A DNA stretch of 64,000 nucleotides from Longimicrobiales bacterium (GTDB lineage Bacteria > Gemmatimonadota > Gemmatimonadetes > Longimicrobiales > RSA9): the NCBI GenBank assembly GCA_035513575.1, contig DATKBW010000157.1:14831-78830 (forward strand). Reading direction: 5' to 3'. Shown in pieces: positions 3,007 through 34,613 of the stretch. How positions within the stretch are numbered: the stretch's first letter is position 1; each line of letters opens with the position of its first letter. Under the pieces are notes generated by a model. It was not told the DNA's origin and searched no databases. It worked only from the letters and a program-made list of their open reading frames with translations. The position numbers and the translations under genes are program-made.

Positions 3007-3022
3007 GGACGGGAGGCGGATC

Positions 3023-3601: not shown

Positions 3602-3606
3602 CCCGT

Positions 3607-4260: not shown

Positions 4261-4268
4261 CCGCCGAA

Positions 4269-5584: not shown

Positions 5585-5599
5585 CTGCCGATGCGGCAG
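5585..5599 (+). terminator. short hairpin after the hydrolase gene (CTGCCG-ATG-CGGCAG, then TT)
   Basis: Perfect 6-bp stem and 3-nt loop immediately after the stop codon. The T tail is only 2 nt, so this is a weak terminator candidate. Confidence 0.2.
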
Positions 5600-5662
5600 T
5601 TGGCACCGGCATCCCGATTGCACCCGAGTCCAGCAACCGCGGAACCTGCCAGGGGATGAGAG

Positions 5663-7611: not shown

Positions 7612-7632
7612 GCGACGGCCCGCACCGCCGGC

Positions 7633-9851: not shown

Positions 9852-9925
9852 GTGGTCGGCTGATAACCCGCTGCTGGCGCGGGGGTCCGCGTGGCGACGA
9901 CGCGCCGGATGTTTATATTCAGGAA

Positions 9926-12227: not shown

Positions 12228-12228
12228 G

Positions 12229-13470: not shown

Positions 13471-14183
13471 GCCCGGATCGGCTCCCGCAGCACCACGTCC
13501 GTCTCGATGACCCCGTCGCGGAGCGTGATGCGGCGGTGGGCATGCTCGGCGATCTCGTGCTCGTGGGTCACGAGGAGGATGGTCTGCCCGTCGTCGTGCA
13601 GCTCCTCGAGCAGCCGCATGATCTCCCCGCTGGTCTGGCTGTCCAGGTTCCCGGTCGGCTCATCGGCCAGCAGGATGGCCGGATCGTTCACCAGCGCCCG
13701 GGCGACCGCTACACGCTGGCGCTGCCCGCCGGAAAGCTCCGCCGGGCGATGCTCCATCCGGTCCGCGAGACCGACGCGCCCCAGCACGTAGCGGGCCTTC
13801 TCCCGCCGCTCCTTCGCACCCACTCCGCCGTAGATCAGCGGCAGCTCGACGTTGTGCAGCGCGGTGGCCCGGGGGAGGAGGTTGAAGGTCTGAAACACGA
13901 ACCCGATCTCCCGGTTGCGGATCGCGGCCAGCTCGTCATCCACCATGCCGGCCACGGCGATCCCGTTGAGCCAGTACTCCCCGGCCGTGGGCGTGTCGAG
14001 GCAGCCGATCAGGTTCATGAGCGTGGACTTGCCGGACCCGGAAGGCCCCATGATCGCGACGTACTCGTTCCTTTTGATCTCGACATCCACGCCGCGCAGC
14101 GCCCTGACCGTCTCCGCTCCGAGGACGTACTCCTTCGTGAGGGCGCGCGTCCGAATCACGATGTTCTGCTCCACCTGCATCAC
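13467..14183 (-). CDS. ABC transporter ATP-binding protein (MacB/LolD-type)
   Basis: Walker [10 protein letters not shown], signature [15 protein letters not shown], Walker [14 protein letters not shown]-loop VTHE. Confidence 0.95.
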
Positions 14184-15475: not shown

Positions 15476-15485
15476 CACTCTCACT

Positions 15486-16982: not shown

Positions 16983-17090
16983 GTCCGCGTTACGATCGAG
17001 TGCCTCGGATCCTTCTCGTGTAGAGCACCGTACGCCGGTCCCGTGTGGCGGGTTTCCGCGCCGTGGGGGGCGTGCCGGTGTACTGGCCTA

Positions 17091-17889: not shown

Positions 17890-18633
17890 TCAGAGGGTGT
17901 CGGTATCCTCGTCGGGTCGGACGAAGACGGCGCGGCGGATGCCCTCGAGGATGCGGCGATAGATGCGCTGGCCCTTCTCCGCCGTGGCGAGGGTGGGGCG
18001 GCCGACGCAGCCGGAGCCACCGGGTGGTGGGGCGGGCATTCCACCGCGCATGTAGCGGCGGAACTCGTCGGGGGCGAGCTGGAAGTCGCGTGCGCGGTCC
18101 ATGCGCACGAGGTCGGGGTAGAGGTGGAGCATGAGGGAGGTTTCCGCTTCGCCGGCATGCTCCGCGGTTTCCTGCCCTTCGAGGAGGTCGTGGATCGGGA
18201 CGTCCCAGACGTCGATGACCCGGACGCGGGCCCCGGTGGTGACGAGGGATGCGAGGGCCTCGAGGTGGGGATCGTGGCGGTGCGCGGTGACGAGGATGAA
18301 TTCGGTGACGCCGTGGCCTTCCCAGGCGTCGAGGAGCTCGTTGAGGGCCCGGTGAAGGGTCTTCCTGCCGAGGGAAGCGGTGCCGGCATAGGCGCGCTCG
18401 GTCCGGACGTTGACGCCGAAATGGAACGTGGGGGCGCGGAGGACGCCGAACTCCCGTGAGAGGTCGAGGCAGAAGCGGCGGCCGATGAGGACGTTGCTGC
18501 CGAGGGGGAGGTGGGCGCCGTGCTGTTCGAGGGCGCCCACGGGGATGAGGAGCCGCGGGTCGCGTGCGAGGTGCGCGGCGACGTCGATCCAGCTGAGCTC
18601 ATCGAGAGCGAGGGGCGTGGACTCATCGGTCAT
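17890..18633 (-). CDS. creatininase-family amidohydrolase
   Basis: LLIPVGALEQHGAHLPLG, TAHRHD and HAGEAETS are creatininase/MftE-type metal-ligand motifs. ATG at 18633 chosen over the Arg-rich upstream extension. Confidence 0.8.
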   Translation of the reverse strand: MTDESTPLALDELSWIDVAAHLARDPRLLIPVGALEQHGAHLPLGSNVLIGRRFCLDLSREFGVLRAPTFHFGVNVRTERAYAGTASLGRKTLHRALNELLDAWEGHGVTEFILVTAHRHDPHLEALASLVTTGARVRVIDVWDVPIHDLLEGQETAEHAGEAETSLMLHLYPDLVRMDRARDFQLAPDEFRRYMRGGMPAPPPGGSGCVGRPTLATAEKGQRIYRRILEGIRRAVFVRPDEDTDTL

Positions 18634-18645
18634 GGTATCATCCCG

Positions 18646-21600: not shown

Positions 21601-22428
21601 CGCCCGGACGAGTTCGGCGATCTGTTCACCTCCTTCAACCGCATGACCCGGCGGCTCCGCCGCGCGCGGGCTCAGGAGCTGCGTACGGCGCGGATCCTGG
21701 CGTGGGGCGAGATGGCGCGACAGGTCGCCCACGAGATCAAGAATCCCCTGACACCGATCAAGCTGTCGGTTCAGCACCTGCGGCGTGCGTACCAGGATCG
21801 GCGCGAGGACTTCGAGCCGATCCTGGACCGGAACGTCGAGCAGATCCTGGTGGAGATCGAGCGGCTGACGGAGATCGCACGGGCGTTCTCGCGCTATGGC
21901 GCGCCCGAAGAGATCGCGGGGGCCACGGAGGGCGTGGACCTGGCGACGGTCGCGCGGGATGTCCTGACGCTGTACAGCGCACCCGACCGGAACGTCTCGT
22001 ACCGTCTGCGCGTGGAGTGCATGGACTGCCGGGCCCGGGTGCGCGGCTCGGAATTGCGGGAGGTGCTGGTCAACCTGCTGGAGAACGCCCGGGCGGCGGT
22101 CGGCGAGTCCGGTCGGGTGGAAGTGGTGATCCGGGAGGAGGACGGGGACGAGGAGCGGCTGTCCCTCGAAGTGCGAGACGACGGCGAGGGGATCCCGCCG
22201 GATCAGCTGCCGCGGATCTTCGACCCGCACTTCTCCACACGCTCCTCGGGAACCGGCCTCGGCCTCGCCATCGTCCGGCGGCTGGTGGAGAGCTGGGGCG
22301 GGGAGATCCGCGCAGACAGCGAGCTGGACGAGGGGACCGCGATCAGGCTGCTGCTGGAGAAAGAGCCGGCGCCGGCCCCCCGCAGGGAGACCGGCGCCGG
22401 AAAGGGCGGGGACCGGCCCTCAGGCTAG
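18646..22428 (+). CDS. large multi-pass sensor histidine kinase (NtrY-like C-terminal module)
   Basis: The C-terminus carries a HAMP-like segment (ARPIGELRRAA...FGDLFTSFNRM), the H-box WGEMARQVAHEIKNPLTPIKLS, and N/G boxes (LVNLLENA, DDGEGIP, GTGLGLAIVRRLV). The preceding ~830 aa hold many hydrophobic helices and three soluble segments. Start is uncertain: GTG 18646, or GTG 18694. Confidence 0.85.
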   Translation: MQEADLTRAATRLRLSVGLAYATLLLLLLWSRSLAPLALLAATAALGAAVWWALRADRRDLRRTPLAVGLALLALALLSATATTIRLEAAARNWERVTTARSEALTGRLANRVEGALARADAAARQAASARDAALFDTLAAIRDRTRVEAVVVVNASDEPVAWAGDHRGRLPPAVLALDSGTVYPGGPLFGYLYRVAESRGGRRAVSAVLLQSGPPLRRDTDALAERFRAVTGERPRFMAPGEPSGDWALRVGGREIVTARLAPLSQGEWRGRVARTGRRLVFFLGLVALSLLAVTWMRTLRDRTGPAGLAPIGALSLMLMAAPLGRTLGLERLFSPAVFVLPIPGDFVIEGVIVVLLPLAAVVSTLRRSAVSPKELWLRLAIGGALVGGGFAVLSGILSASAGAPLLTGGGYLWYVLQPTSVVLLTILAVLLMPRSAPDEDVRRPLLYGAAAIAASVVLALAVAASWQPPSPVPTPLLFAWSIPFVLGARAVAGYDGRADRLIRWLAAGWLASSAVIPHLWLTSQESRLRQAEAEVESFGVRGDPYLSYLLVRFTDALSGAAARGEQGVELLYDAWVSSGLAGEPYPLELSAWDSTTTRVAHLPLGVRVEPDGLAAAGLRSTVLSAVATGQPRNEPAEGGGVSRVLAVPLSGGRVVTVAVAPRVSLRPTSALAAFVEGEPRQDAVLELIPTPGAGTLKEGVVRWQRTEEGWRSETLLREGRDLYHGHLSIRMPPPGVRLARGMLLMAGNLLLLTLLWLLGRLARGDPPSPPGGWLGWLAGFRARLIASLFAFFLMPTAVFGWAAYEALSEEVTRAARQVAERAVVQASSVLPQLGLDEAARRIGEDLLYYEGGALRASSFPEAVELGLYTAWLPPGIFRRMRAGEALEATEMGELAGRSYLVAYRRLQSAREAVAVPVWLAARDVAVRQREFAHLALFGALVGAVLSLTLSIAVGRALARPIGELRRAASAVGRGHLRVRLPEQRPDEFGDLFTSFNRMTRRLRRARAQELRTARILAWGEMARQVAHEIKNPLTPIKLSVQHLRRAYQDRREDFEPILDRNVEQILVEIERLTEIARAFSRYGAPEEIAGATEGVDLATVARDVLTLYSAPDRNVSYRLRVECMDCRARVRGSELREVLVNLLENARAAVGESGRVEVVIREEDGDEERLSLEVRDDGEGIPPDQLPRIFDPHFSTRSSGTGLGLAIVRRLVESWGGEIRADSELDEGTAIRLLLEKEPAPAPRRETGAGKGGDRPSG

Positions 22429-23906
22429 CGGACCCGGAAGCTGCGGACACCGACGTTCCCGGTGACCACGCTCCGGATCCTCAGCACCACGATATCGCCC
22501 GGATCGACGTCGGATACGGCGCGCTCGAGATCCCGGACGGACCGCACCGGCTGGCGATTGAACTCCAGAATGACGTCGCCCTCCTGGAGCACACGGCCAC
22601 CGGACCCGTTCGGATTGACGCGCGTCACCACCAGGCCATCTGTCCCGGGCTCGAGGCCGAGCTGACCGCGCAGCTGCGGCGTCAGCGGCGAGACGGTGAA
22701 GCCCAGGGTCTGCTCCGGGGTGGCAAGGGCGGCCGCGACCCGCCGGGGCTGCTCGGGACGGTCGAACTCGGCGAGGCGGATGGGGACCTGGATGCGGCGG
22801 CGGTCCCGCACGATCTCCAGCGTCACCCTGTCGCCCGGCTCCAGACGGGCCAGGCGTGTGGTGAGCTCGGTGCTGCTCTCGATCGCTTCGCCGTCGACGG
22901 CCACGACCACGTCCTCCGGTCGGATCCCCGCCTCTTGCGCAGGCCCGCCAGGGCTCACCTCGGTCACGTAGGCGCCGGCGATCCGGTCCAGCCCGTACAG
23001 CTCCGCCTGCGCCTCGCCCACATCCTGGATCAGGACGCCGATCCGCGGGCGCCGGACATACCCGTGCTCGATCAGGTCCCGGGCCGCGCGCACCGCGATG
23101 GCCGATGGGACCGCGAAACCGTTCCCCGCGTAGTTGCCGGTGGGCGAGTAGATGGCGGTGTTCACGCCGACCAGGCGGCCGAAGAGGTCCACGAGAGGCC
23201 CGCCAGAGTTCCCGCGATTGATGGCCGCATCGGTCTGGATGAACGCCTCGAGGCGGAGGTCGCTGTCGATGATCCCGAGGCTGCGGCCCTTGGCGCTGAC
23301 GATCCCGGCGGTCACGGTGAAGCCGAGGTCGAGCGGGTTGCCGAGGGCGAGCACCCAGTCGCCCACCTGGAGCCGATCGGAGTCACCGATCTCGAGGGGC
23401 GCGAACTCCTCGCCCCGCCGGGGCTCGATCTTCACCACCGCGATGTCCGTGTTCGGGTCGCGCCCGACCACCTCCGCGCCGGAATAGACCCGGCCATCGG
23501 GGAAGCGGACATCGATCTCCGTGGCATCGGCCACCACGTGGTTGTTCGTGATGATGTGGCCGGCGCTGCTGAAGACGAACCCCGACCCGGTGCCGGTCTG
23601 GGGCACGCCCTGGCCCTGGTCGGGGGCGCCGAACGGGAAGGGGAAGGGGCTCTGACGCCCCCGGGATGGCCGTGCCGTGACATTGATCGTGACCACGCTG
23701 GGAAGCGCGCGGGCGGCGGCCGCCCGGAACGTGCCGGAGAGGGAAGCGGCGGTGCCGGTGTCGACCACGGCCGGGATGTCGCCGATCTGCTCGCGGAGCT
23801 CCCGGGACGTCCTCTCCTGCGCGAGGGCGTCGCCCCGTCCGCACCCTGCCAGCATGACGAGGGACGCCGCGACGATCCTGCGCACCGTGATGCCCTGCCC
23901 ATCCAT
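22425..23906 (-). CDS. htrA: Do/DegP/HtrA-family serine endoprotease with two PDZ domains
   Basis: Catalytic triad context GHIITNNHVV, NTDIAVVKI, GNSGGPLVD, followed by two PDZ-like segments. N-terminal signal/anchor VAASLVMLAGC. Confidence 0.93.
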   Translation of the reverse strand: MDGQGITVRRIVAASLVMLAGCGRGDALAQERTSRELREQIGDIPAVVDTGTAASLSGTFRAAAARALPSVVTINVTARPSRGRQSPFPFPFGAPDQGQGVPQTGTGSGFVFSSAGHIITNNHVVADATEIDVRFPDGRVYSGAEVVGRDPNTDIAVVKIEPRRGEEFAPLEIGDSDRLQVGDWVLALGNPLDLGFTVTAGIVSAKGRSLGIIDSDLRLEAFIQTDAAINRGNSGGPLVDLFGRLVGVNTAIYSPTGNYAGNGFAVPSAIAVRAARDLIEHGYVRRPRIGVLIQDVGEAQAELYGLDRIAGAYVTEVSPGGPAQEAGIRPEDVVVAVDGEAIESSTELTTRLARLEPGDRVTLEIVRDRRRIQVPIRLAEFDRPEQPRRVAAALATPEQTLGFTVSPLTPQLRGQLGLEPGTDGLVVTRVNPNGSGGRVLQEGDVILEFNRQPVRSVRDLERAVSDVDPGDIVVLRIRSVVTGNVGVRSFRVR

Positions 23907-24168
23907 CAGATACCTCCTCGGTTTGACTCGATCCCGCCAGGCCGGAGCTCACTCCGCCGCAGGCGTCGTGCCGATCCCGCTCGACCCTCCATCCCATAGT
24001 TCGCCGATCGAGTCTCTTTGTTCCGCCGCGCGGCGGAAGCGTCATGGCGGTTCGATGACGGCGTCGCCCGCGACCGTTGCCCAACGAACCGCCTGCTCGG
24101 GGCGTCAGTATGATCGGACGAGGCCGGGACGGACGGCACGCCGGCGGCGGAACCACGGAAGGGATGGA

Positions 24169-25485
24169 ATGAGGACCAGATCAGGAGTCGTGGCCGTGCT
24201 GGCCGTGCTGGCTTTCGCGGTGGCGGTGCCGGCGGAGGGCCAGGAGGTTCCCCGTACGGAAGCGGTGGATACCGTTTCGCTGGAAGAAGCGGTGGCGCGG
24301 GCGCTGGACACGAGCCCCCAGGTCGTGCAGGCGGAGCGTGGGCTCGGATCGGCCGGGTTCGGGACGAAGCAGGCGTACGCCTCGCTCCTGCCGAACCTGT
24401 CGCTGTCCACGGGCGCATCCCTCTCGAGCTCCGACCGGTTCGATCAGACGACGGGGCTCTGGGTCTCGAACCAGAGCGACAGCTACAACGCCGGCCTCTC
24501 CGCGAGCATGGACGTCTTCAGCGGCGGCCGCAACCTGGCGGCGGTGCGGAGCGCCCGGGCGACGGTGGAGGCCGCCGGGGCCACGTTGGTGACCCGGCGC
24601 TTCGCCGTGGCGCTGGAGGCGAAGCGCGCGTTCTTCGCGGTGCTGAGGGCGGAAGACCTGATCCGGCTGAACCAGGAGCGGATCGCACAGGCCCGGGAGC
24701 AGCTCCAGGCGGCGGAGCGGCGGCTGCAGGCCGGTCGCGCCACGCGCTCCGACGCGCTCCGGGCGCAGCTCCAGCTGTCCAACGCCCGACAGGCGCTGCT
24801 GAACGCCGAAACCCAGCGTCGCACGGCGATGTACGCGCTGGGCCAGCTCGTGGGTGTGGCGGGCCCGGTCGCGGCGGCCCCGCCCGCCACGCTGGCCCCG
24901 GAAACGCTGGCGCTCACTCCGGCCGAAATGCGGGAGCTCGTGCGGGCGGCAGCACCGGCCGTGATCGCGTCGGACGCCACGCTGGGGGTCGCGGAAGCGG
25001 CCCTGTCGCAAGCCCGGGCGCAGTACTTCCCGTCCGTGGGCGTGAGCGGGGGGTACAACTGGTCGAACACGGAATTCGGCCTGAACCAGGGGCGCACCAG
25101 CTGGAACACGCGCGTGAACCTCTCCTACCCGCTGTTCAACGGGCTGCAACGGGAGGTGTCCGTAGACCGGGCGCACGCGCAGCTGGAGGTCGCGGAGGCC
25201 GAGGCGGCGGAAGCGCGGCGCGCGGCGCTGGCCGGGCTCGAGCGTCTGATGGCGGCGCTCGAGCTCGCGGCGCTCGAGCTCGTGATCCTGGACGAGTCCG
25301 TGGCGGTGGCGGAGGAAGACTACCGCGTGCAGCGGGAGCGGTACGAGCACGGCGCGGCGACGATCCTGGAGCTGGTGTCGTCGCAGATCGCGCGCATGCA
25401 GGCCGAGCACGACCTGATCAACGCGCGGTACGATTACCAGATCGCCAAGGCGGAGCTGGAGTCGCTGCTGGGACGGGAGCTGTGA
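24169..25485 (+). CDS. TolC-family outer membrane efflux protein (second copy)
   Basis: Signal peptide MRTRSGVVAVLAVLAFAVAVPAEGQ. OEP repeats (VSLEEAVARALDTSPQV, LLPNLSLSTGAS, YFPSVGVSGGY). Confidence 0.9.
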   Translation: MRTRSGVVAVLAVLAFAVAVPAEGQEVPRTEAVDTVSLEEAVARALDTSPQVVQAERGLGSAGFGTKQAYASLLPNLSLSTGASLSSSDRFDQTTGLWVSNQSDSYNAGLSASMDVFSGGRNLAAVRSARATVEAAGATLVTRRFAVALEAKRAFFAVLRAEDLIRLNQERIAQAREQLQAAERRLQAGRATRSDALRAQLQLSNARQALLNAETQRRTAMYALGQLVGVAGPVAAAPPATLAPETLALTPAEMRELVRAAAPAVIASDATLGVAEAALSQARAQYFPSVGVSGGYNWSNTEFGLNQGRTSWNTRVNLSYPLFNGLQREVSVDRAHAQLEVAEAEAAEARRAALAGLERLMAALELAALELVILDESVAVAEEDYRVQRERYEHGAATILELVSSQIARMQAEHDLINARYDYQIAKAELESLLGREL

Positions 25486-26978
25486 TGAGACGGAATCCCA
25501 GGTCGAACCGGAGGGGTGAAGTGGGCGAACGGTGGACGCAGGGGCGGCGGGTCACGCTGGCGGTGCTGGCGTCGCTCGGGCTGGCGGCGTGCTCGGACTC
25601 CCGTGCGTCCGTCGGCGGTGAGACGAACGGTGAGGAAGTGGCCACGGTGGAGCGGGGCGACCTGGAGATCCGGGTGGAGGCCTCCGGCGCGGTCGAGCCG
25701 ATCCTGGTGGTGGAAGTGAAGTCGAAGGCATCGGGCGAGATCACGGCACTCCAAGTCGAGACGGGAGACCGGGTGGAGCGGGGGGCGCTGCTGGCCACGG
25801 TGGACCCGCGGGACGTCCGCAACACCTTCGCCCAGGCCGAGGCGGACCTGGAGGTGGCCCGGGCCCGGCTCCAGATCTCCGAGTCGCAGCAGGCGCGGGC
25901 GGACGAGCTGCGGAAGGCGAACGTGGTGACGCAACAGGAGCTCGAGCAGTCCGTCCTGGACGCGGCGAACGCACGGGCTCAGCTGATCAAGGCCCGGGTC
26001 AATCTCGACCTGGCGCGTGAGAAGATGGGCGACGTGACGATCCGCGCGCCGATCGCGGGGACGGTCATCCAGAAGACCGTCGAAGCGGGCCAGATCATCG
26101 CGTCCGCGAGCGGCAACGTCTCCGGGGGGACCACCCTGATGCTGATGGCGGACCTGTCCATGATGCAGGTGCGGACGCTGGTGGACGAGACGGACATCGG
26201 GAAGGTAGCGTCGGGGCAGGTCGCGCAGGTCCAGGTCGAGGCCCACCCGGGGCGGACGTTCACGGGCTCGGTCTACAAGATCGAGCCGCAGGCGGTCGTC
26301 GAGCAGAACGTCACGATGTTCCCCGTGCTGGTGCGCCTCGACAACCGTGAGGGGCTGCTGAAGCCGAACATGAACGCCGAGGTCGCCATCGAGGTGGCCA
26401 ACCGGTCCGATGTCCTGCTGGTCCCCAACGCTGCCGTCGTGGGAATGCAGGACGCCGCGGCCGCCGCCGCCATCTTCGGGATGGATGCGGAAACCATGCG
26501 GGAGCGAATGCAGTCGACCCGACCCGAGCCGCAGCGGGCCGGGGGAGCCGCGGCCGACGGCGGTGCCGACAGCGCGGCGACGGGCGGTGCGGACGGTGCC
26601 ACCGATTGCGGAACGCTGCTGGCCCGGGTCCGCGGCGGTGATCGGGGCTCTCTCTCCGAGGCGGAGCGCGCGCGGGTCCGGGAGTGCGTGCAGCAGTCCG
26701 GCGGCCGCGGCGGTCGGTTTGCGGGCGCGCGTTCCGCCGACCCCGACACGAGGGCGGCCGTGCTCTTCGTCCATGGCGCGACGGGGCCGGAGCCCCGTCT
26801 GGTGATGCTGGGGCTGAACGACTGGGACCGGACGGAGGTGGTGAGCGGGGTGGAGGAGGGGGAGAGAGTGGTGATGATGTCGGTGGCGCGGCTCCGTCAG
26901 CAGCAGGAAGAGCTGATGAACCGGATCCGGGAGCGGAGCAGCCCCATCCCGGGCGGCGGAGGCAGCCGTGGCCGGTAG
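25485..26978 (+). CDS. efflux transporter periplasmic adaptor subunit (HlyD/MacA family) with a ~100-aa low-complexity insertion
   Basis: Lipobox LGLAAC, biotinyl-lipoyl-like KSKASGEITAL...GDRVERGALLATVDP, coiled coil, IRAPIAGTV, FTGSVYKIEP. An insertion lies at about aa 321-425. Start ATG 25485 or GTG 25482 overlaps the tolC stop. Confidence 0.88.
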   Translation: MRRNPRSNRRGEVGERWTQGRRVTLAVLASLGLAACSDSRASVGGETNGEEVATVERGDLEIRVEASGAVEPILVVEVKSKASGEITALQVETGDRVERGALLATVDPRDVRNTFAQAEADLEVARARLQISESQQARADELRKANVVTQQELEQSVLDAANARAQLIKARVNLDLAREKMGDVTIRAPIAGTVIQKTVEAGQIIASASGNVSGGTTLMLMADLSMMQVRTLVDETDIGKVASGQVAQVQVEAHPGRTFTGSVYKIEPQAVVEQNVTMFPVLVRLDNREGLLKPNMNAEVAIEVANRSDVLLVPNAAVVGMQDAAAAAAIFGMDAETMRERMQSTRPEPQRAGGAAADGGADSAATGGADGATDCGTLLARVRGGDRGSLSEAERARVRECVQQSGGRGGRFAGARSADPDTRAAVLFVHGATGPEPRLVMLGLNDWDRTEVVSGVEEGERVVMMSVARLRQQQEELMNRIRERSSPIPGGGGSRGR

Positions 26979-26991
26979 GCACGGCTCGGCC

Positions 26992-28200
26992 ATGCTGCTG
27001 GGCGAGATCCTGAAGGTCGCCGTCGAGTCCATCCGCGTGAACAAGCTGCGCTCCTTCCTGACCATGCTCGGGATCATCATCGGGATCGCGGCGGTGATCA
27101 CGATGGTGGCGCTGGGCGAGGGAGCGCAGCGGCAGGTGCAGGACCGGATCGCAGGCCTGGGCGCGAACGTCCTGACGGTGCGCCCGGGTCAGAACTTCTT
27201 CGGTGGGGTGGACCGCGGCTCGGCGCGTCTCACGACGCAGGACGCGGAAGCGATCGTGGCGGGAGCTCCGTCGGTCCGCGCGGTAGCGCCCGAGATGGAG
27301 CGGCGGCAGCAGGCGGAGTTCGGGCGCGGCAACGCCAACCTGTCGGTGGTCGGCTCGTGGCCGAGCTACTTCGAGATCCAGAACATGCGGGTGACGGTGG
27401 GGCGGATATTCACGCCGGGCGAGGAACGGGGGCGTCGTCGTCTGGTGGTGATCGGATCCGCGGTGCCGGAGCGGCTCGGGAGCAGCCCGGCGGCGCTGCT
27501 GGGGCAGACGGTGCTGATCCGGGGCATCCCGTTCGAGGTGATCGGGATCCTGGCCGAAAAGGGGTCGCAGGGGTGGGACAACCCGGATGAGCGGCTCTAC
27601 ATCCCGCTCTCCACGGCGCAGTTCCGCGTATTCGGCTCGGAGTGGGTGCGCTCGATCAACGTGCAGGCGGTGAGCGCGGCCTCCATGGACGCGGCCATCT
27701 CCGAGATCGACCGGGTGCTGAGGCGGGCGCACCGGCTGGCGCCGGGCGTGGCCAGCGACTTCAACGTGCGGAACCAGGCATCGCTGATGGAGACGTTCGA
27801 GGAGACCACGCAGACGTTCACGTTCCTGCTTGCCGGGATCGCGCTGATCTCCCTGCTCGTGGGCGGGATCGGCATCATGAACATCATGCTGGTCTCGGTG
27901 ACCGAACGGACCCGGGAGATCGGCGTGCGGAAGGCGCTCGGGGCGAGGCGGCGGCACATCCTGCTGCAGTTCCTGATCGAGTCTCTCGTGCTCTGCACCG
28001 CGGGCGGGGCGGTGGGCGTCGCCGCCGGCTGGGGAGGCGCGCGGCTGCTCCAGCGGATGGCCGGCTGGGAGACCGTGGTGGCGCCGGAGGCAGTGGCGCT
28101 CGCATTCCTGTTCTCCGCGTTCGTCGGCATTTTCTTCGGGCTCTGGCCGGCCCGGCGGGCGGCGAGCCTGGACCCCATCGAATCCCTCCGCTACGAGTAG
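26992..28200 (+). CDS. ABC transporter permease, MacB/FtsX family
   Basis: MLLGEILKVAVESIRVNKLRSFLTMLGIIIGIAAV ... ERTREIGVRKALGARRRHILLQFLIES. ATG 26992 preferred over GTG 26968, which overlaps the adaptor gene. Confidence 0.9.
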   Translation: MLLGEILKVAVESIRVNKLRSFLTMLGIIIGIAAVITMVALGEGAQRQVQDRIAGLGANVLTVRPGQNFFGGVDRGSARLTTQDAEAIVAGAPSVRAVAPEMERRQQAEFGRGNANLSVVGSWPSYFEIQNMRVTVGRIFTPGEERGRRRLVVIGSAVPERLGSSPAALLGQTVLIRGIPFEVIGILAEKGSQGWDNPDERLYIPLSTAQFRVFGSEWVRSINVQAVSAASMDAAISEIDRVLRRAHRLAPGVASDFNVRNQASLMETFEETTQTFTFLLAGIALISLLVGGIGIMNIMLVSVTERTREIGVRKALGARRRHILLQFLIESLVLCTAGGAVGVAAGWGGARLLQRMAGWETVVAPEAVALAFLFSAFVGIFFGLWPARRAASLDPIESLRYE

Positions 28201-28203
28201 CCG

Positions 28204-30612
28204 CTACTCGGCCCGGAGCGCCTCCGCCGGAGCCACGCCGGCGGCGCGGAGGGCGGGTGGCAGGGAGGCCGCGAACACGACGCCCGCCAGGATGATGACC
28301 GTGCCGAGGATCGTCGCCGGGTCCGTCGGCTCGACTCCCACCGCGAGGTCGGTCACGAGCCGCCCGAACAGGATGGATGTGGCCGCGCCGAGCGCGAGGC
28401 CACCGACCAGGAGCCGGAGCCCGTCCCCGAGAACCCACCGGACCACGGCCGCCCGATCGGCGCCGAGGGCGATCCTCACCCCGATCTCGTGGCGCCGGAG
28501 TGCCACCATGTAGGCCACCACCCCGAAGAGGCCGGCCGCACCCAGGACCAGCGCCACGGCCGCCAGGATCGCCACGAGCGCCAGGTTGAAGCGCGGCCGT
28601 ACGAGCTGCGCGGCGACATGGTCGCGCATGGTGCGGACGGACGACGGGGACACGTCCGGGTCGATCGCCGCGAGCGCCGCCTCCACCGGGCGCACCACCG
28701 CGCCCGGGTCCGACCGCGTGCGGAGGACGACAAAGGTGCCCCAGCGCGGCTGCTGGCGGTTGGAGAAGTAGATCTCCGGCTGCGGCGCCACCCCCGGCGA
28801 GAAGGGCGGCACGTCGGGGATCACGCCGATGATCTCGACCTCTCCCTCGAGCTCGGGAAGCTGGACGCGCGCCCCGACCGGCGATCCCTCGGGCCAGTGC
28901 CGGGTGGCCATGGCGCGATTCACGAGGGCCACCGGCGTGCTCCCGGCCCGGTCACGGCCGTCGAAATTCCGGCCCTCGAGCAGCGGGAGTCCGAGCGTCG
29001 GGACGTAGCCGGGCCCCGCGTCGAACCACGCCACCGTCGGCGCTTCGCCCACCGGCACCGGAGGGCGCCCGCGCACGAGGAAGGGCGTGAGGCCATCGCC
29101 GCCGCCAAAGAGGGGCCCGGCGGACACCGTCCCGACGGATTCCACGCCCGCAAGCCCTCCCAGCTCGGCTTCTGCCCGCTCCAGGAACGCCCGCACCTCC
29201 GCTGTGGTGGGATAGCTTCCCGGCGAGAGGAAGAGGGAGAAGGTCAGGAGCCGCTCGACCTCGAATCCCGGCCGCCACTGGAGGAGGGAGGAGAAGCTGC
29301 GGGTCAGCAGACCGGCACCGAAGACGAGAGCCAGCGCGAGCCCGAGCTGGACCACGACGAGGCCCCGGCGCACGCGGGCCGTGCCCCGCGTCCCACCGGA
29401 GCGGCCCCCGCGGAACGATGCCGCCAAGTCCAGCGCCCACGCCCGGGACGCGGGGGCGAGGCCGAACAGGAGCGCGGCGAGGGCGGTGACCGCCGCGGCG
29501 AAGGCCAGGACGCGCCCATCCACCCTCACTTCCTCCAGCCGCGGCACTCCCGGCGGCGCGAGGGCGATGAAGAGCTCGGTTCCCGCGTAGGCGAGGGCGA
29601 TGCCTCCTAGGCATCCGGCCGCCGCGAGGGCGCCCGCTTCCACCAGCAGCAGCCGCGTCAGCCCCCCGTGCCCCGCGCCGAGGGCCAGGCGAACGGCCAT
29701 CTCACGCTCCCGTGCGGTGGCGCGCGCGAGCAGCAGGTTCGCTATGTTGACGCACACGATCACCAGGAGGACCGCCACCGCGGCGAGGAAGAGCCGCAGA
29801 ACGGGGCGGATCGGAGCGACGATATGGTCCCGCATGCGCTGCGTGGTCACGCTCCAGCCCACCAGGGCGTCGGGATGGCTTTCCGCCAGCCCCGCCTGCA
29901 CGCGCTGGAGCTCCTCGCCCGCCTGCTCGACCCCCACGCCCCGGCGCAGGCGCCCCACCCCCACGAAGCCGCGCCAGTCCCGGCGCTCCTCGGCACGGGG
30001 ATCGAAATGAAGCGGCAGCCACACGCCGATCCCCTCGAGCCGGGGGGCCTGGAACCCGGCCGGGAGGACACCCACGACCGTGCGGGGGATCTCGTCCAGG
30101 ACCAGCGTGGCCCCCACGACGTCCTCGCGCCCGCCGAGCTCCGTCTGCCAGAACTCGTGGGTCACCACGGCGGCACCGCCAGGCACCGCCGGCAGGTCAT
30201 CGTCCACCAGGAGGCGGCCCCGCGCGGGCGGCACGCCGAGGGCCCGGAAGAACCCTGGCGTGGCGATCCCGGATGGGACGAAGCGCGCGCCGCTCCCGGT
30301 CCGCAGCGCCGTGGACCACCAGCGTGCCGCGCCCAGGGCCTCGAAGCTCGTGGCCCGATCCGCCCAGTCCGAGAGGTTCACGGTGGAGACCGAGCAGTGG
30401 CGGGTCTCGGCCCCGTGTTTTTCGCACACCGTGACCAGGCGGTCGGAGTCCGGGAGGTCCAGGGGGCGGAGGAGCACGTGGTCCACCACGCTGTAGATCG
30501 CCGTCGCGGCCCCGATCCCCACCGCCAGCACGGCCACCGCGATGGCGGCGAAACCGGGGGCGCGGCGGGCCTGTCGGAGCGCGTAGCGGAAGTCGCGCGC
30601 GATGCGCGTCAT
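28204..30612 (-). CDS. ADOP-family duplicated FtsX-type permease
   Basis: N-terminus MTRIARDFRYALRQARRAPGFAAIAVAVLAVGIGAATAIYSVVDHVLLRPLDLPDSDRLV is the characteristic ADOP start. About 802 aa with two FtsX-like modules. ATG at 30612. Confidence 0.88.
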   Translation of the reverse strand: MTRIARDFRYALRQARRAPGFAAIAVAVLAVGIGAATAIYSVVDHVLLRPLDLPDSDRLVTVCEKHGAETRHCSVSTVNLSDWADRATSFEALGAARWWSTALRTGSGARFVPSGIATPGFFRALGVPPARGRLLVDDDLPAVPGGAAVVTHEFWQTELGGREDVVGATLVLDEIPRTVVGVLPAGFQAPRLEGIGVWLPLHFDPRAEERRDWRGFVGVGRLRRGVGVEQAGEELQRVQAGLAESHPDALVGWSVTTQRMRDHIVAPIRPVLRLFLAAVAVLLVIVCVNIANLLLARATAREREMAVRLALGAGHGGLTRLLLVEAGALAAAGCLGGIALAYAGTELFIALAPPGVPRLEEVRVDGRVLAFAAAVTALAALLFGLAPASRAWALDLAASFRGGRSGGTRGTARVRRGLVVVQLGLALALVFGAGLLTRSFSSLLQWRPGFEVERLLTFSLFLSPGSYPTTAEVRAFLERAEAELGGLAGVESVGTVSAGPLFGGGDGLTPFLVRGRPPVPVGEAPTVAWFDAGPGYVPTLGLPLLEGRNFDGRDRAGSTPVALVNRAMATRHWPEGSPVGARVQLPELEGEVEIIGVIPDVPPFSPGVAPQPEIYFSNRQQPRWGTFVVLRTRSDPGAVVRPVEAALAAIDPDVSPSSVRTMRDHVAAQLVRPRFNLALVAILAAVALVLGAAGLFGVVAYMVALRRHEIGVRIALGADRAAVVRWVLGDGLRLLVGGLALGAATSILFGRLVTDLAVGVEPTDPATILGTVIILAGVVFAASLPPALRAAGVAPAEALRAE

Positions 30613-30673
30613 GGCCGTCTCACGGTTGCGGGAGCGGTCCGGAGGCCATACGCGGAGGGGCACCGGTGCGGAA

Positions 30674-30832: not shown

Positions 30833-31675
30833 GTGAAGAGAAGACTCCAACGGGCCATCGAGGCCCTGGCAACGGAGGCAGGCGCATCCGCCGTGGCGGT
30901 GGCGGCGCACGACCTCGCGGACAGGCGGACGCTCACGCTGCACGCGGACCGGTGGTTCCATGCCGCCAGCACGATCAAGCTGGCGGTCCTGGTCGCGCTG
31001 TACGACGCGATCGATCGAGGGACGCTGCCGGAGGACGCGCGCGTCCACGTGCGGAACCAGTTCACGAGCCTGGCGGACGGCGGCTACTACCGCGTGGATC
31101 CCCGCCGGGACGGTAACGAGGAGGTACACACGTACGTGGGACGGACGATGCGAGTACGGGACCTGGCGCGCCACATGATCGTGACGAGCAGCAACCTGGC
31201 GACGAACGTGCTGGTGGAGCTGCTGGGCCCGGAGGCGATCCGTGCGTCGCTGGACCGGCAGGGGGTGGAAGGGCTCGAGTTCCGGCGTGGAGTGGAGGAC
31301 CAGGGGGCGTGGGAGTCCGGAATCAACAACCGGGTCACGGCGGCGGGGCTGGAGCTGCTGCTGCGGGGGGTGGCGGAGGGGTCGTCGGTGTCGGAGGACG
31401 CATCGGGGGAGATGCTGGAAGTCCTGCACGACCAGCGGTTCGTGAGCGGGATCCCGGCGGGGCTCCCGGACGGGGCGCGGGTCGCGAACAAGACGGGCGA
31501 GATCTCGACGGTGGTGCACGACGCCGGGGTGGTCTACCTGCCCGACCGGGACCCGTACGTGATCGTGGTGCTGACGGAGTGGCCGGAGAACGGGGACACG
31601 GGGCAGCGGCGGAAGCTGATCGCGGAGATCTCGCGGATGATGCTCCAGGACTTCGTGGAGGGGTCGGATGAGTGA
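30833..31675 (+). CDS. class A beta-lactamase-like serine hydrolase, no signal peptide apparent
   Basis: All four class A motifs are present in order: AASTIK (SxxK), TSSN (SDN position), WESGINN (ExxxN), NKTG (KTG). GTG 30833 is preceded by GGAGGGG. The N-terminus VKRRLQRAIEALATEAG is not hydrophobic. Confidence 0.8.
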   Translation: MKRRLQRAIEALATEAGASAVAVAAHDLADRRTLTLHADRWFHAASTIKLAVLVALYDAIDRGTLPEDARVHVRNQFTSLADGGYYRVDPRRDGNEEVHTYVGRTMRVRDLARHMIVTSSNLATNVLVELLGPEAIRASLDRQGVEGLEFRRGVEDQGAWESGINNRVTAAGLELLLRGVAEGSSVSEDASGEMLEVLHDQRFVSGIPAGLPDGARVANKTGEISTVVHDAGVVYLPDRDPYVIVVLTEWPENGDTGQRRKLIAEISRMMLQDFVEGSDE

Positions 31676-32276
31676 GTCGGTGCGGGGGCTCAGGGTGGTG
31701 GACGCCCTCGAGCTCGCGGGACCGTACCGCGAGGCGCTGCGGCCGGGCGAGCTGGTCCGTGACGGCGCGGGGCGTGCAGTGCAGCTCCCCCGGTACTTCT
31801 ACGAGGTGCCGACCTGGGAGGCGGCGCTGGACACGTGGCTGTCGCCGCATTTCGGCGCGTTCGAGTTCCTGGATGTCGACGTCCGGGAGGCGGAGCCCCT
31901 GCGCGCGTTCCCGCGCTATCTCCCGTGCGCGGTGGTGGCGTTCGCCGCGGTGCTGGAGCGGTTCCGCGAAGCGGCGGGCGCCCCAGTCCGGATCGCGGCC
32001 AACGGAGGATACCGGTCGCCGTCCCACGCGCTGTCGCGGGACCGGTCGCCGCACCTGTGGGGTGCCGCGGCAGACATTTACCGGATCGGGGGGGATTACC
32101 TGGACGACCCGGAGCGGATCAGGCGCTACGCGGAGCTGGCGGAGCGGGCCGTCCCGGGTGCGTGGGCCCGGCCGACGGGGACCGACCCGGCGTCCGCGTT
32201 CGACCACCTGCATCTGGACCTCGGGTACCTGACACGGGTGCCGCGAGACGTGCAGGTGAAGGAGCGGGAATCATGA
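31668..32276 (+). CDS. LAS/peptidase M15-like zinc D,D-peptidase-fold protein, no signal peptide apparent
   Basis: GGYRSPSH...SPHLWGAAAD matches SxHxxGxAxD, followed by DHLHLD as the second His ligand context. Overlaps the upstream gene by 8 nt. Confidence 0.75.
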   Translation: MSESVRGLRVVDALELAGPYREALRPGELVRDGAGRAVQLPRYFYEVPTWEAALDTWLSPHFGAFEFLDVDVREAEPLRAFPRYLPCAVVAFAAVLERFREAAGAPVRIAANGGYRSPSHALSRDRSPHLWGAAADIYRIGGDYLDDPERIRRYAELAERAVPGAWARPTGTDPASAFDHLHLDLGYLTRVPRDVQVKERES

Positions 32277-33451
32277 AGAAGCACGAGCGAAGGGAACAGA
32301 TCGAGCGGCGGCGAGAGCCGGAGCGCGGCGCCATCGGGATGGAGGCGGAGTTCGTCTGCGTGGTGGACGGCGAGGTGGTCGATCCCGCGGACGTGTTCGG
32401 CGACCCGCGTGCCTTCTTGGGGGACGGCGCGCTGCACCGGGTGGGGACCTCGTATCACCTGCCGACCGGGGGCGCGGTCTACTTCGATACCGGGGTGATC
32501 GAGGTGGTGACACCCGTGATCGAGGTAGGCCGGGCGTGCGCGTCGCAGGTCGTGCGCTCGTTGTGGGAGGGGGTCTGCCTCGTCCGGGACCGGCTGGACC
32601 AGTGGAGCGAGCGGGAGGGGCGGGAGGCGCGGCTGGTGGGCTTCAGCGCGCACTACAACGTCTCCCTGCCCGAGCTGGGGAACGGGTCCCGGATCGCGGC
32701 CATCGGGCGGACGCTCACGGACATGCTGCCGTTCCCGGTCATGCTCTTCGCGGCGAACCGCCGCTCCACGGGCATCGGGGTACGCCCTCGCCCCGGGCGC
32801 GTCGAGGTGACAGCGGACTTCACGCCGGATCCGGGGCTGATGGTGGCCACGACGGCCATCATCCTGGCCGCGGTCATGGAGGTGGCGGGGTGGGAGGACC
32901 CCGGGCGGGCGGCGCTGGAGGACCGGGGTTACCCGGTCATCGCGGGGTTCGACCCGGTGCCGCACACCTCGCGCAGGGGGTGGCTCGCGCGGTACTCGTG
33001 CTACACCCCCGATCCGTTCCGCAGCCGCCCCGACGACCGGCAGTGGCGGACCACGCGCGGGGACCGGGTGTCGGTCCGGAGCGCGTCGCGCCGGGTCGTC
33101 GCGCGGCTGACCCCCGTGCTGCGGCGGATCGCCGCCGAGGATACGCGCCGGCTGATCGCGCTGGTGCTGGTAGCTCGCCTCCCCTCGCTGCTGGACCTCA
33201 ACGACCGACCGGAGGCCTACGAGGACGTGGGCCGGCTGTGTGTCTGGCGGGAGCCGGACCCGAGCCGTCCGCTGGACCGCTCCGCGTACGAGCAGGTCAT
33301 GCGTGACGCGATGGCGGGGTTGCCGATCCGCGTGGACGGGCAGCTCTACCGCCCGGTCGGCACGAGCGGTTGGACGCGCGTTCGCTATCGGAGCGATGGC
33401 GGGCGCGAGCGTACGTTCTCGGTCGACGAGCTGGTGCGGCTGCGGAGCTGA
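32273..33451 (+). CDS. hypothetical protein with carboxylate-amine ligase (glutamine synthetase fold)-like N-terminal motifs
   Basis: 392 aa. The ATG overlaps the upstream stop (ATGA). Motifs IGMEAEF, TGGAVYFDTGVIEVVTP and GFSAHYNVS occur in the order seen in GCS2/YbdK and PafA/Dop-type ligases. This is motif-level similarity only. Confidence 0.45.
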   Translation: MKKHERREQIERRREPERGAIGMEAEFVCVVDGEVVDPADVFGDPRAFLGDGALHRVGTSYHLPTGGAVYFDTGVIEVVTPVIEVGRACASQVVRSLWEGVCLVRDRLDQWSEREGREARLVGFSAHYNVSLPELGNGSRIAAIGRTLTDMLPFPVMLFAANRRSTGIGVRPRPGRVEVTADFTPDPGLMVATTAIILAAVMEVAGWEDPGRAALEDRGYPVIAGFDPVPHTSRRGWLARYSCYTPDPFRSRPDDRQWRTTRGDRVSVRSASRRVVARLTPVLRRIAAEDTRRLIALVLVARLPSLLDLNDRPEAYEDVGRLCVWREPDPSRPLDRSAYEQVMRDAMAGLPIRVDGQLYRPVGTSGWTRVRYRSDGGRERTFSVDELVRLRS

Positions 33452-33512
33452 AGCAACACCCCCGCATGTTCGTGTGTCCATTCAGGTATGGTGAACCCCG
33501 AAGGAGGGTAGC

Positions 33513-34613
33513 GTGAGGAAGCGCTGGCCGATCGCCCTCGTGGCGGTGCTCGTGGGGGCCGTTTCGCCGCCGGCGTGCGGGCCGGTGCCGGCGGGGGGTG
33601 GGGCGGCGCACGAGGCATCGCGTCTGGATGTGCGGTTCGTCGTCGACGAACCCGAGGCCGTGCTGGACATCCTGGACGCCATGGCGCGTGGCGAGGAGGT
33701 GGGGAGCGCCGCGTGGGCCCGCCTCTTCGCGACCGAGGGGTACCGGCGGTTGAAGGAACGGGAAGCGTCGTTGAATCGGGCGTTTACCGATGACGAGTTC
33801 GGATCGTTCGTGCGGAGCCCGGCGCTTGCGGAGCGCCGGACGGAGCTCAGGCGCACCCTCGAGCGGTGGCGCTCGGTGGACATGGCGGAGCCGGCGCGGC
33901 TGGCGTTCCGATACCTGCCGGAGGGTGCGGCGATCCGGGCCGCGGTCTACCCGTCGATCAAGCCGCGGACCAATTCCTTCGTGTTCGAGCCCCGGACGAA
34001 CCCGGCGATCTTCCTGTACCTCGACCCCGCCAAGCCAGCCGCCGCGCTGACGAACACGGTGGCGCACGAGCTCCACCACATCGGCCTGGCCGGCGCATGC
34101 GGGGATCCCGACCCGGGTCTCCCGAAGGGCGTCCGTGACGCCCTCGACTGGATGGGCGGCTTCGGTGAGGGGCTGGCGATGCTGGCGGCGGCGGGGGGCG
34201 CGGACACACACCCTCACGCGACGAGCCCGTCCGAAGCGCGGGCGGTGTGGGACTCCGCGGTGGCGCGGGTACCCGCCGACCTGGCCCGGCTGGAGCGCTT
34301 CTTTCTCGACCTCGTCGACGGGCGGATGACCGAAGAGGAAGCGGCGACGCGAGGGTTCCGCTTCCTCGTCGATGACGGGGTGCCACAGGGGGCGTTCTAC
34401 ACCGTCGGCTGGCACATGGCGGCGCTGGTGGAGCGGGAGCTCGGGCGGGAGCGGGTCGTCGCTGGCGTGTGTGATCCGGCGGTGCTGCTGGCGGACTACG
34501 ACCGCGCCGCGGCGGCGGTGGGAGCCAGGACCGGCCGGCGGCTGCCGCGCTGGTCCGGGACGCTGCTGGAGGCGGTGGGCGCCGGTTCCGCGGTGGAGCA
34601 AGGCGTGCGCTGA
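33513..34613 (+). CDS. secreted putative zinc metallopeptidase (HExxH; DUF5700-like)
   Basis: GTG 33513 is preceded by AAGGAGGG. Signal peptide MRKRWPIALVAVLVGAVSPPAC. HELHH motif in TNTVAHELHHIG. Confidence 0.65.
   Translation: MRKRWPIALVAVLVGAVSPPACGPVPAGGGAAHEASRLDVRFVVDEPEAVLDILDAMARGEEVGSAAWARLFATEGYRRLKEREASLNRAFTDDEFGSFVRSPALAERRTELRRTLERWRSVDMAEPARLAFRYLPEGAAIRAAVYPSIKPRTNSFVFEPRTNPAIFLYLDPAKPAAALTNTVAHELHHIGLAGACGDPDPGLPKGVRDALDWMGGFGEGLAMLAAAGGADTHPHATSPSEARAVWDSAVARVPADLARLERFFLDLVDGRMTEEEAATRGFRFLVDDGVPQGAFYTVGWHMAALVERELGRERVVAGVCDPAVLLADYDRAAAAVGARTGRRLPRWSGTLLEAVGAGSAVEQGVR

Follow-up and report, generated by a model that had tools for sequence, protein, structure and literature searches.

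A conserved trio of two leaderless peptidase-fold proteins and a glutamine-synthetase-fold protein in Gemmatimonadota and other bacteria: a possible cytoplasmic module for murein stem peptides

What might a bacterium do in its cytoplasm with two proteins of folds whose relatives act on the D-amino-acid-containing peptides of the cell wall, and why should they be encoded in one coupled unit with a ligase-like protein? This question is raised by a locus of a Longimicrobiales bacterium (Gemmatimonadota; GenBank assembly GCA_035513575.1), which we studied in a 64,000-nucleotide stretch of contig DATKBW010000157.1 (positions 14,831 to 78,830 of the forward strand; hereafter the window). The locus consists of three overlapping genes, g1, g2 and g3, which we term the cassette or trio, and is followed by a fourth gene, g4. 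A prediction made earlier from the letters of the window alone (the original prediction) supposed it to be a module that works, in the cytoplasm, on a peptide with D-amino acids, and this broad idea is still the best reading. We favor a more specific form of it, to which we assign a probability of roughly 0.4, namely that the cassette is a non-canonical cytoplasmic module for the salvage or editing of murein stem peptides. What is known of murein recycling comes almost wholly from a few Proteobacteria, and the reuse of wall peptides by abundant soil phyla like Gemmatimonadota and Acidobacteriota is a gap in this picture.

All four open reading frames (ORFs), along with their coordinates, the overlaps within the trio and the gap between g3 and g4, were reproduced (Table 1). 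The g1 gene ends with a TGA at 31673-31675, running 8 nt past the g2 ATG at 31668, and the stop codon of g2 lies within the ATGA where g3 begins (ATG at 32273; overlap of 4 nt); g3 and g4 are 61 nt apart. A GGAGG-type Shine-Dalgarno sequence is seen 5-9 nt ahead of every one of the four starts, that of g1, which starts with GTG, being GGAGGGG. Neither sigma-70 promoter nor terminator signals were found around the cassette, and no Rfam family reached its gathering score anywhere in the window. A conserved leader or riboswitch ahead of g1 was rejected as a candidate, since the conserved translation concerned in Gemmatimonadaceae (SRLRQSGSPRSILL) comes from the 3' end of the permease gene that precedes g1, in a different reading frame. 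A hydropathy scan detected no N-terminal hydrophobic segment in g1, g2 or g3, in agreement with the claim that these proteins lack export signals. For g1 this holds for the start at 30833 as well as for a longer form from 30737; the 32 additional residues of the latter are basic or polar, which rules out this start as the source of an export signal. The same scan found in g4 the hydrophobic N-terminal segment IALVAVLVGAVS, followed by Cys22.

The trio is a real conserved unit. In a scan of one genome per species, g3 relatives were found to be encoded in 507 species, mostly Gemmatimonadota, the others being Ramlibacter, Caenimonas, Rubrivirga, a Bacteroidota metagenome-assembled genome (MAG) and Blastocatellia. 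All 73 loci that were informative by virtue of having enough upstream DNA (from Gemmatimonadota, Ramlibacter/Caenimonas, Blastocatellia and Bacteroidota-type MAGs) have g1, g2 and g3 in this order, with the first two immediately before the third. The called genes of relatives overlap by 4-8 nt at the g1/g2 junction (7/7) and by 1-4 nt at the g2/g3 junction (5/7). A second, divergent g3 subfamily, which is about 45% identical and all of whose named members come from MAGs annotated as Thermoanaerobaculia, has g1 and g2 upstream of g3 in 38 of 47 informative metagenome loci. The g3 proteins of this subfamily (loci L089-L171) contain an Arg/Lys/Glu-rich low-complexity insertion of ~150 residues between the conserved ...EDVGRLC.W and C-terminal RSAYE.V segments. 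The predicted coupled unit of three genes thus recurs, with its order and overlaps, as neighboring genes in related genomes. We found no g3 match on plasmids, and no PADLOC defense model matched any of the four proteins g1-g4, which excludes the cassette as a known anti-phage defense system. In open-access papers we found no prior description of the trio or of the g3 family.

The fourth gene is a different matter. Its product matches DUF5700 (E-value 2e-23), and this HELHH protein had been considered a possible part of the same unit; however, it is absent from 84 of 84 related loci, and in the two closest relatives (L085 and L086; 80% and 68% identity), which have the same FtsX and ComM flanks, comM comes directly after g3. 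We accordingly do not count g4 as a member of the cassette; it looks like a lineage-specific insertion between g3 and comM.

The g3 product retrieved no match in Pfam, NCBIfam or PDB by sequence and profile searches, and even with E-values of up to 10 allowed, 35 members of its family gave no Pfam hit, be it to Pup_ligase, GCS2, Gln-synt_C or Amidoligase_2. In Foldseek searches, however, its AlphaFold2 model (pLDDT 91, pTM 0.91) matched the Pup ligase PafA (PDB: 4bjr; E-value 3.5e-9), Dop (1e-7), YbdK (8e-6), and also GmaS and GlnA, with probabilities of 0.99-1.00 and E-values from 3.5e-9 to 1e-3 overall. As judged from the model, g3 is a protein of the catalytic fold common to PafA, Dop, YbdK/GCS2 and glutamine synthetase (GS), from which it differs in lacking sequence-profile membership, in TM-scores of only ~0.5 and in a family-specific C-terminal part. 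It had been described as 'ligase-like', and that description is borne out: g3 belongs not to a well-understood unrelated family, but to a known superfamily in which it represents no described family. Invariant across 83 sequences are E24, E26, Y70, D72, E77, E84, H127, N162, R171, R173, R176, E178, D182, H231 and R234. In weak hhalign alignments the GMEAEF and YFDTG..E motifs of g3 fall on GIETEY and YLDVGSHPE of Corynebacterium glutamicum PafA (probability 12%), and its PVML..NRRS..R.R..RIE..PDP on PVML..NRS..R.P..RIEVRFPDP of E. coli GlnA (probability 0.8%, E-value 0.069); the alignment with E. coli YbdK is likewise non-significant (E-value 0.41). In these non-significant alignments the invariant acidic, histidine and arginine residues of g3 sit at metal- and ATP-binding motif positions of GS and PafA, the common positions being a glutamate pair on the first strand, Y-x-D...E, a central-strand histidine and NRxS...R...RIE. 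Going by these motifs, the active site may be conserved.

The g3 family is compact. A search of 1.84 billion representatives yielded 594 g3 representatives at 50% identity; about a dozen of the 150 best-scoring ones listed are full-length, most of the others listed are fragments, and no distant relative bridging g3 to other families was found among these 150. Every named homolog among 240 listed hits is labeled 'hypothetical protein'. P0257 and P0345, which were considered as fusion proteins, are frameshifted read-throughs of g2-g3 or g1-g2-g3. What further sets g3 apart from the known members of its superfamily is its pairing with two peptidase-fold genes, always in the Gemmatimonadota type and usually in the Thermoanaerobaculia type.

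The g1 product proved to be a serine hydrolase of the class A/penicillin-binding protein (PBP) type, as the original prediction had it. It matches the Pfam family Beta-lactamase2 with 163 bits (cutoff 22; E-value 7e-48), and the class A catalytic motifs SxxK, SxN and KTG are invariant in 76 sequences of the family, in the form of S46xxK49, S119-S-N121 and K220-T-G-E223, together with R152-G-V-E155-D156. The four motifs from which it had been recognized (STIK, SSN, ESGIN and KTG) are all literally present in the window, but the reading of ESGIN (E161..N165) as the ExxxN motif could not be extended to the family: its Glu is found in 55/76 and its Asn in 54/76 orthologs, whereas the omega-loop acid E155 of the RGVED segment is invariant. 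Further invariant residues, R70, H72, R74, R87 and H229, are specific to the g1 family. The closest solved structure is that of PBP-A, Tll2115, from the cyanobacterium Thermosynechococcus elongatus (PDB sequence match, E-value 1.4e-21), with which g1, like the class A beta-lactamases, has the fold and the SxxK, SxN and KTG motifs in common. PBP-A is a DD-carboxy/endopeptidase that cleaves stem peptides and discriminates the state of the D-isoglutamate/D-isoglutamine residue (D-iGlu/D-iGln; PMC11189452). Where PBP-A has Leu158, g1 has the invariant E155, at the position of beta-lactamase E166, and in this it resembles the beta-lactamases with their general base. It is nevertheless not a bona fide beta-lactamase, because its score against the NCBIfam model bla_class_A, 107 bits, is far below the cutoff of 200; moreover, no Asn following E155 is invariant, so that the family has no conserved equivalent of N170. 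For the evolution of beta-lactamases g1 is thus of interest as a PBP-A-like protein that yet has the glutamate whose absence separates PBP-A from the beta-lactamases.

Unlike class A beta-lactamases, which are secreted, and PBP-A, whose site of action is the murein sacculus, g1 is without a signal peptide, and the N-termini of ~80 orthologs are short and polar. Independent gene callers give lengths of 278-287 residues in five Gemmatimonadota/Ramlibacter-type relatives, and the called proteins of the two closest relatives have 280 residues, as in the window. At two Thermoanaerobaculia loci the called g1 proteins are longer (300-320 residues), with N-terminal extensions that are polar and basic.

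The g2 product consists of a family-specific, conserved N-terminal part of ~60 residues followed by a peptidase-like core. It contains the SPHLWGAAAD and DHLH motifs on which its assignment to the LAS/M15 fold had been based, and stays below threshold in Pfam, with 19.6 bits for Peptidase_M15_3 (cutoff 23.2; E-value 1e-3) and 12.9 bits for M15_4 (cutoff 25). Its AlphaFold2 model (pLDDT 80) supports the fold, matching M15-type peptidases of phages in BFVD (Foldseek E-value 1.7e-4, probability 1.00, TM-score 0.45-0.63); matches in PDB are weak, with Ply500 and LdcB on top (E-values 0.06-0.35) and VanY and VanX further down (2.5-7). Likewise, the g2 profile aligns with the Streptomyces albus DD-carboxypeptidase across nGGyRS...H.wG.AaD. 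The core fold is one that g2 has in common with the phage M15_3 proteins, Ply500 and LdcB, and the motif positions GGYRS...H..G.A(D) and D-x-x-H are common to them as well. Relatives of this fold are L-Ala-D-Glu, LD- and DD-peptidases. H120, H129, D179, H182 and D184 are invariant in g2, and R116 is present in 76/77 sequences. The part of the assignment that did not hold across the family concerns the canonical zinc-ligand aspartate of LAS enzymes: position 136 is Asp in the window but Asn in 70/77 orthologs, D136 occurring only in the clade of the window, at a few further loci and in L090, the single Thermoanaerobaculia sequence that was inspected. Like VanX, and unlike most M15 enzymes, g2 is predicted to be cytoplasmic.

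The gene-neighborhoods of the cassette in relatives provide the link to the cell wall. The original prediction had remarked that the locus lacks the Mpl murein-recycling set, and in the window this is so, with no recycling-gene domain (mpl, ldcA, ampD, ampG, mpaA) among the ORFs scanned with Pfam; in relatives it does not hold. 1) Of 49 Gemmatimonadota loci, 34 have a gene for Mpl (TIGR01081, 460 bits; cutoff 389) in convergent orientation to the cassette. In 33 of the 34 this gene follows downstream of g3, in 26 of them at a distance of 30-1150 nt from the g3 end, and it is found in both Longimicrobiales-type and Gemmatimonadaceae-type loci, which differ in the intervening genes. 2) In 31 Gemmatimonadaceae-type loci an SBP_bac_5 binding protein (Dpp/Opp/MppA-type) and a DppB-type permease are encoded so as to end 35-160 nt before g1; the binding protein matches GsiB/YliB, HbpA and DppA with E-values of 5e-59 to 6e-55 and MppA with 7e-47. 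3) In Thermoanaerobaculia a lysC-dapB-dapA-dapD-aminotransferase cluster directly precedes the trio on the same strand and with short gaps (15/23 trio loci; dapA and dapD are missing upstream in the other 8/23), no dapE or dapF being visible in this cluster. Downstream are genes for an SLT lytic transglycosylase (32/42) and an RlpA-like DPBB protein (31/42), which also persist after 8 of the 9 g3 genes that stand without g1 and g2, the ninth (L089) having a Slt70-like SLT gene upstream instead. 4) Among individual loci, a Burkholderiales-type one (L173) has a PBP5-type S11 carboxypeptidase gene 3 kb upstream, and two Ramlibacter-type ones have a gamma-glutamyltranspeptidase gene ~1.1 kb upstream (Table 1). 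These lineages differ in their neighbors, yet a common theme runs through them, namely the murein peptide containing meso-diaminopimelate (mDAP), its supply and its release. From mpl in Gemmatimonadota and the dap, SLT and RlpA genes in Thermoanaerobaculia it follows that the locus is most likely one for cell-wall peptides, albeit an unusual one.

Further genes were noticed in these neighborhoods. Two small unannotated genes lie between the gamma-glutamyltranspeptidase gene and the cassette in both Ramlibacter-type loci, and one locus with a solitary g3 (L131) has a gene for a tetratricopeptide repeat (TPR) protein upstream. Some Thermoanaerobaculia loci encode a DUF547 protein between the aminotransferase of the dap cluster and g1, the copy in L090 having a hydrophobic N-terminal stretch, FPGITFVIAFLFV. 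A small protein of 169-196 residues without a Pfam match is encoded just downstream of g3 in four loci (L089, L090, L092 and L127).

Building on the observed folds, conserved catalytic residues, lack of export signals, gene coupling and neighborhoods, we infer a substrate, a bond specificity for each enzyme and a direction for the g3 reaction as follows. The substrate would be imported peptidoglycan stem peptides, L-Ala-gamma-D-Glu-mDAP with or without D-Ala. The g1 protein would remove the C-terminal D-Ala, as a DD- or LD-carboxypeptidase, and g2 would cleave or hold a second D-amino-acid bond, such as L-Ala-D-Glu or D-Ala-D-Ala. Characterized members of the g3 superfamily activate the gamma-carboxylate of glutamate; g3 itself might use ATP to convert a carboxylate of the peptide, with D-Glu as the most plausible residue, into an acyl-phosphate, which would lead either to a new amide (ligation or amidation) or, in the manner of Dop, to the hydrolysis of an existing one (deamidation or cleavage of gamma-D-Glu-mDAP). 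The outcome would be a usable peptide for Mpl, mDAP for the cell, or both. We favor murein as the source because the relatives of g1 (PBP-A) and g2 (L-Ala-D-Glu, LD- and DD-peptidases) act on stem peptides, and because peptidoglycan-related neighbors are found independently in different phyla. That a leaderless enzyme of a wall fold should work in the cytoplasm is plausible in light of ElsL of Acinetobacter, which has the fold of a secreted wall enzyme but no leader and is the cytoplasmic LD-carboxypeptidase of murein recycling (PMC8649774). With ElsL and the canonical recycling system (AmpG/Opp-MppA, AmpD, LdcA, Mpl and MpaA) the cassette would have the cytoplasmic location in common, and with the canonical system also the principle that stem peptides are trimmed before they reach Mpl; in relatives Mpl and an importer of the MppA/Dpp family are its actual neighbors. 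None of g1, g2 and g3, however, is homologous to LdcA (S66), ElsL (YkuD), MpaA (M14) or AmpD.

Several observations weigh against this proposal. With respect to g3, to our knowledge no murein-peptide recycling scheme needs an ATP-dependent step and none includes a GS-fold ATP-dependent enzyme; the links of g3 to PafA and GS at the sequence level are non-significant, the fold match alone reaching significance; and in 9 of 47 Thermoanaerobaculia loci g3 occurs without g1 and g2 nearby. Because the zinc-ligand aspartate is an asparagine in most orthologs, g2 may be something other than a conventional zinc peptidase. As for the neighborhoods, mpl is on the strand opposite to the cassette and is absent from the window and from 10 of 10 non-Gemmatimonadota loci. 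Most flanks in Ramlibacter, Caenimonas, Blastocatellia and Bacteroidota are mutually unrelated, and the peptidoglycan-related flanks described above do not recur outside the lineages concerned; since flanks among the loci of the first scan are mostly unrelated outside Gemmatimonadota, it is the trio alone that forms the conserved unit. Moreover, no neighborhood link extends beyond a single phylum, and each could reflect synteny inherited within its lineage.

A more far-reaching version of the stem-peptide proposal is possible, though doubtful: g3 would found a new family of the GS/PafA fold acting on the stem peptide, no ATP-dependent acyl-phosphate enzyme with this fold having preceded it in cell-wall metabolism, and the trio would be a salvage pathway that in Gemmatimonadota, Thermoanaerobaculia and some Burkholderiales stands in for LdcA and MpaA. 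As part of the same version, g3 might act like Dop in deamidating D-iGln or amidated mDAP, or it might be an amidase of gamma-D-Glu-mDAP or a nucleotide-independent ligase of gamma-D-Glu-mDAP. What is new in the favored proposal would be the processing of murein peptides by non-canonical enzymes, with a GS-fold family new to such chemistry, rather than anything categorically new. If the murein proposal is true, another enzyme fold, the third after those of LdcA (S66) and ElsL (YkuD), would serve in cytoplasmic trimming, and a penicillin-binding-type enzyme would be at work inside the cell. A Pup-ligase/GS-fold ATP enzyme would likewise enter peptidoglycan chemistry, as the first of the GS fold to be linked to peptidoglycan peptides, and a function would be at hand for a family of several thousand database clusters, all 'hypothetical' and absent from Pfam. 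Should the link to murein be wrong, there would still be a widely conserved pathway made of three recognizable catalytic folds.

Among the alternatives, the one that survives best, while still unlikely, is that the trio handles D-amino-acid or gamma-glutamyl peptides other than those of murein, whether exogenous or made by the cell itself. It might serve the catabolism of environmental peptides, or else detoxify an antimetabolite, be it a peptide or a beta-lactam, whose target is in the cytoplasm, for example an inhibitor of GS-fold enzymes of the tabtoxinine-beta-lactam type. In the latter case g1 would open a lactam or ester, g2 would cleave a carrier dipeptide and g3 would be the protected, decoy or modifying enzyme. 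A cytoplasmic beta-lactamase fold that keeps the deacylating Glu (E155) suits a lactam with a cytoplasmic target, and the GS fold of the third gene is in keeping with this idea, although g3, having no Gln-synt_C match, is not a glutamine synthetase. The distribution of the cassette is dominated by soil lineages, the binding protein of Gemmatimonadaceae resembles GsiB/YliB, HbpA and DppA, which bind glutathione and dipeptides, about as closely as it does MppA, and the gamma-glutamyltranspeptidase of the two Ramlibacter-type loci fits as well. On the other hand, the cassette sits in the core chromosome with stable synteny, housekeeping flanks and no plasmid match, which is unlike a mobile resistance island; no regulator or efflux gene is linked to it with any consistency; and the recurrent mpl, dap, SLT and RlpA neighbors suggest that the peptides come from the cell's own wall.

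The location of the Thermoanaerobaculia trio behind lysC-dapB-dapA-dapD-aminotransferase genes, with neither dapE nor dapF visible in the cluster, invites a second alternative, in which the trio belongs to diaminopimelate (DAP) and lysine metabolism, either by processing an N-acylated or gamma-glutamylated DAP intermediate in place of DapE-type deacylation or by making or removing a DAP conjugate. Both g1 and g2 have amidohydrolase folds, GmaS is one of the Foldseek matches of g3, and GS-fold enzymes such as PuuA conjugate amines to glutamate. We regard this as distinctly unlikely: the dap linkage is seen in a single class, and even there dapA and dapD are wanting in the 8 trio loci mentioned above, while the cassettes of Gemmatimonadota, Ramlibacter and Blastocatellia are not beside dap genes. 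Three enzymes are also more than the replacement of DapE calls for, and no epimerase is present.

The cassette could also be read in the direction of synthesis, with g3 as the ligase that makes a small D-amino-acid-containing peptide or amide and with g1 and g2 serving in maturation, proofreading or self-protection. Judging from its sequence, g3 appears to have kept all the invariant acidic, His and Arg residues that a working ATP-dependent ligase should have; the very compact family points to strong constraint, and the tight translational coupling suggests that the products are stoichiometric partners. Yet genes for transporters, tailoring enzymes, racemases or precursor supply are not consistently adjacent, and two hydrolases per ligase fit degradation or editing better, making such a biosynthetic role quite improbable.

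We consider it very improbable that the trio remodels cell-wall precursors in the manner of the Van systems, with g2 corresponding to VanX, g1 trimming pentapeptides like VanY, and g3 as a non-homologous substitute for the VanA-type ligase. VanX is a cytoplasmic D-Ala-D-Ala dipeptidase of 202 residues, which is also the length of g2, and the fold matches of g2 include VanX, VanY and LdcB; furthermore, one ligase and two hydrolases of D-Ala-directed folds, all three cytoplasmic, recall the makeup of such a system. However, the matches to VanX and VanY are weak (see above), and within ~8 kb on either side of the trio there is no VanH dehydrogenase, ATP-grasp D-Ala-D-Lac/Ser ligase or VanRS, in line with the earlier remark that a Van-type ligase and dehydrogenase are lacking. 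Neither are these genes conserved in related loci, the flanks of which differ between lineages. We know of no GS-fold enzyme that activates D-Ala, and the cassette belongs, as a vertically stable element, to the core of phyla of the Gram-negative type, beyond the reach of glycopeptides.

A Pup-like tagging system, in which g3 would, like PafA, attach a peptide or protein to lysines through a carboxylate or, like Dop, take such tags off again, is scarcely credible: PafA and Dop are the best structural matches of g3 (E-values 3.5e-9 to 8.5e-7) and its N-terminal motifs align, non-significantly, with the GIETEY and YLDVGSHPE of PafA, but the TM-score is only ~0.5, Pup_ligase is matched by 0/35 members, there is no Pup gene near g3, no small ORF with a C-terminal GG[QE] within 1.5 kb at any locus and no conserved small ORF besides shadows of neighboring genes, and the annotated neighborhoods contain no proteasome or Mpa genes.

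Table 1. Positions of the cassette, its neighbors and other features in the window and in related loci
Sequence	Feature	Positions	Strand	Description
Window	Cassette and g4	30833-34613	+	four ORFs, coordinates confirmed
Window	g1	30833..31675	+	280 aa, leaderless PBP-A/class A beta-lactamase-like serine hydrolase
Window	g2	31668..32276	+	202 aa, leaderless divergent LAS/M15-fold protein
Window	g3	32273..33451	+	392 aa, unannotated family, predicted member of the glutamine-synthetase-fold carboxylate-amine ligase superfamily
Window	g4	33513-34613	+	DUF5700 HExxH (HELHH) protein, signal-like N-terminus
Window	Upstream neighbor of g1	likely Met start at 30630		808-aa MacB/FtsX permease, divergent to g1
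Window	comM			neighbor beyond g4
Window	Efflux genes	10989-17087	-	two tandem MacB/FtsX permeases, HlyD adaptor, OEP channel
Window	Efflux genes	23656-30630		just upstream of the cassette: second OEP, 410-aa MacB/FtsX permease, 808-aa double-domain MacB/FtsX permease
Window	Sensor kinase	18460-22428	+	stop-to-stop ORF of ~1320 aa, HAMP/HisKA/HATPase
Window	ORF	2648-3601	+	no Pfam match at E-value 1e-5
Window	ORF	7612-9309	+	no Pfam match at E-value 1e-5
L090	g3, Thermoanaerobaculia type	8001-9644		example with the ~150-aa insertion
L089, L110, L113, L119, L125, L126, L131, L132, L157	Solitary g3			no g1 or g2 nearby (up to 10 kb of upstream DNA)
L001	Gamma-glutamyltranspeptidase	3487-5439		Ramlibacter-type locus
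L172	Gamma-glutamyltranspeptidase	2470-4428		Ramlibacter-type locus
L090	DUF547 protein	5133-5975		between aminotransferase and g1
L091	DUF547 protein	2610-3380		between aminotransferase and g1; also in other loci
L089	Small protein	9860-10450		just downstream of g3
L090	Small protein	10193-10702		just downstream of g3

The remainder of the window (G+C ~72%) is of core chromosomal character, a Pfam scan of its ORFs having identified dnaX, recR, dnaJ, rpsB, tsf, cdsA, rseP and uvrD in the flanks of the cassette, along with several efflux sets of the MacB/HlyD/TolC type. Components of MacB-type efflux are unusually dense in two regions, one of them immediately upstream of the cassette (Table 1). 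The two sizeable ORFs that lack a Pfam match show coding-type G+C at third codon positions. The large sensor kinase has an N-terminal part of ~1000 residues without a Pfam match, and a similar gene is found in L086, one of the two closest relatives.

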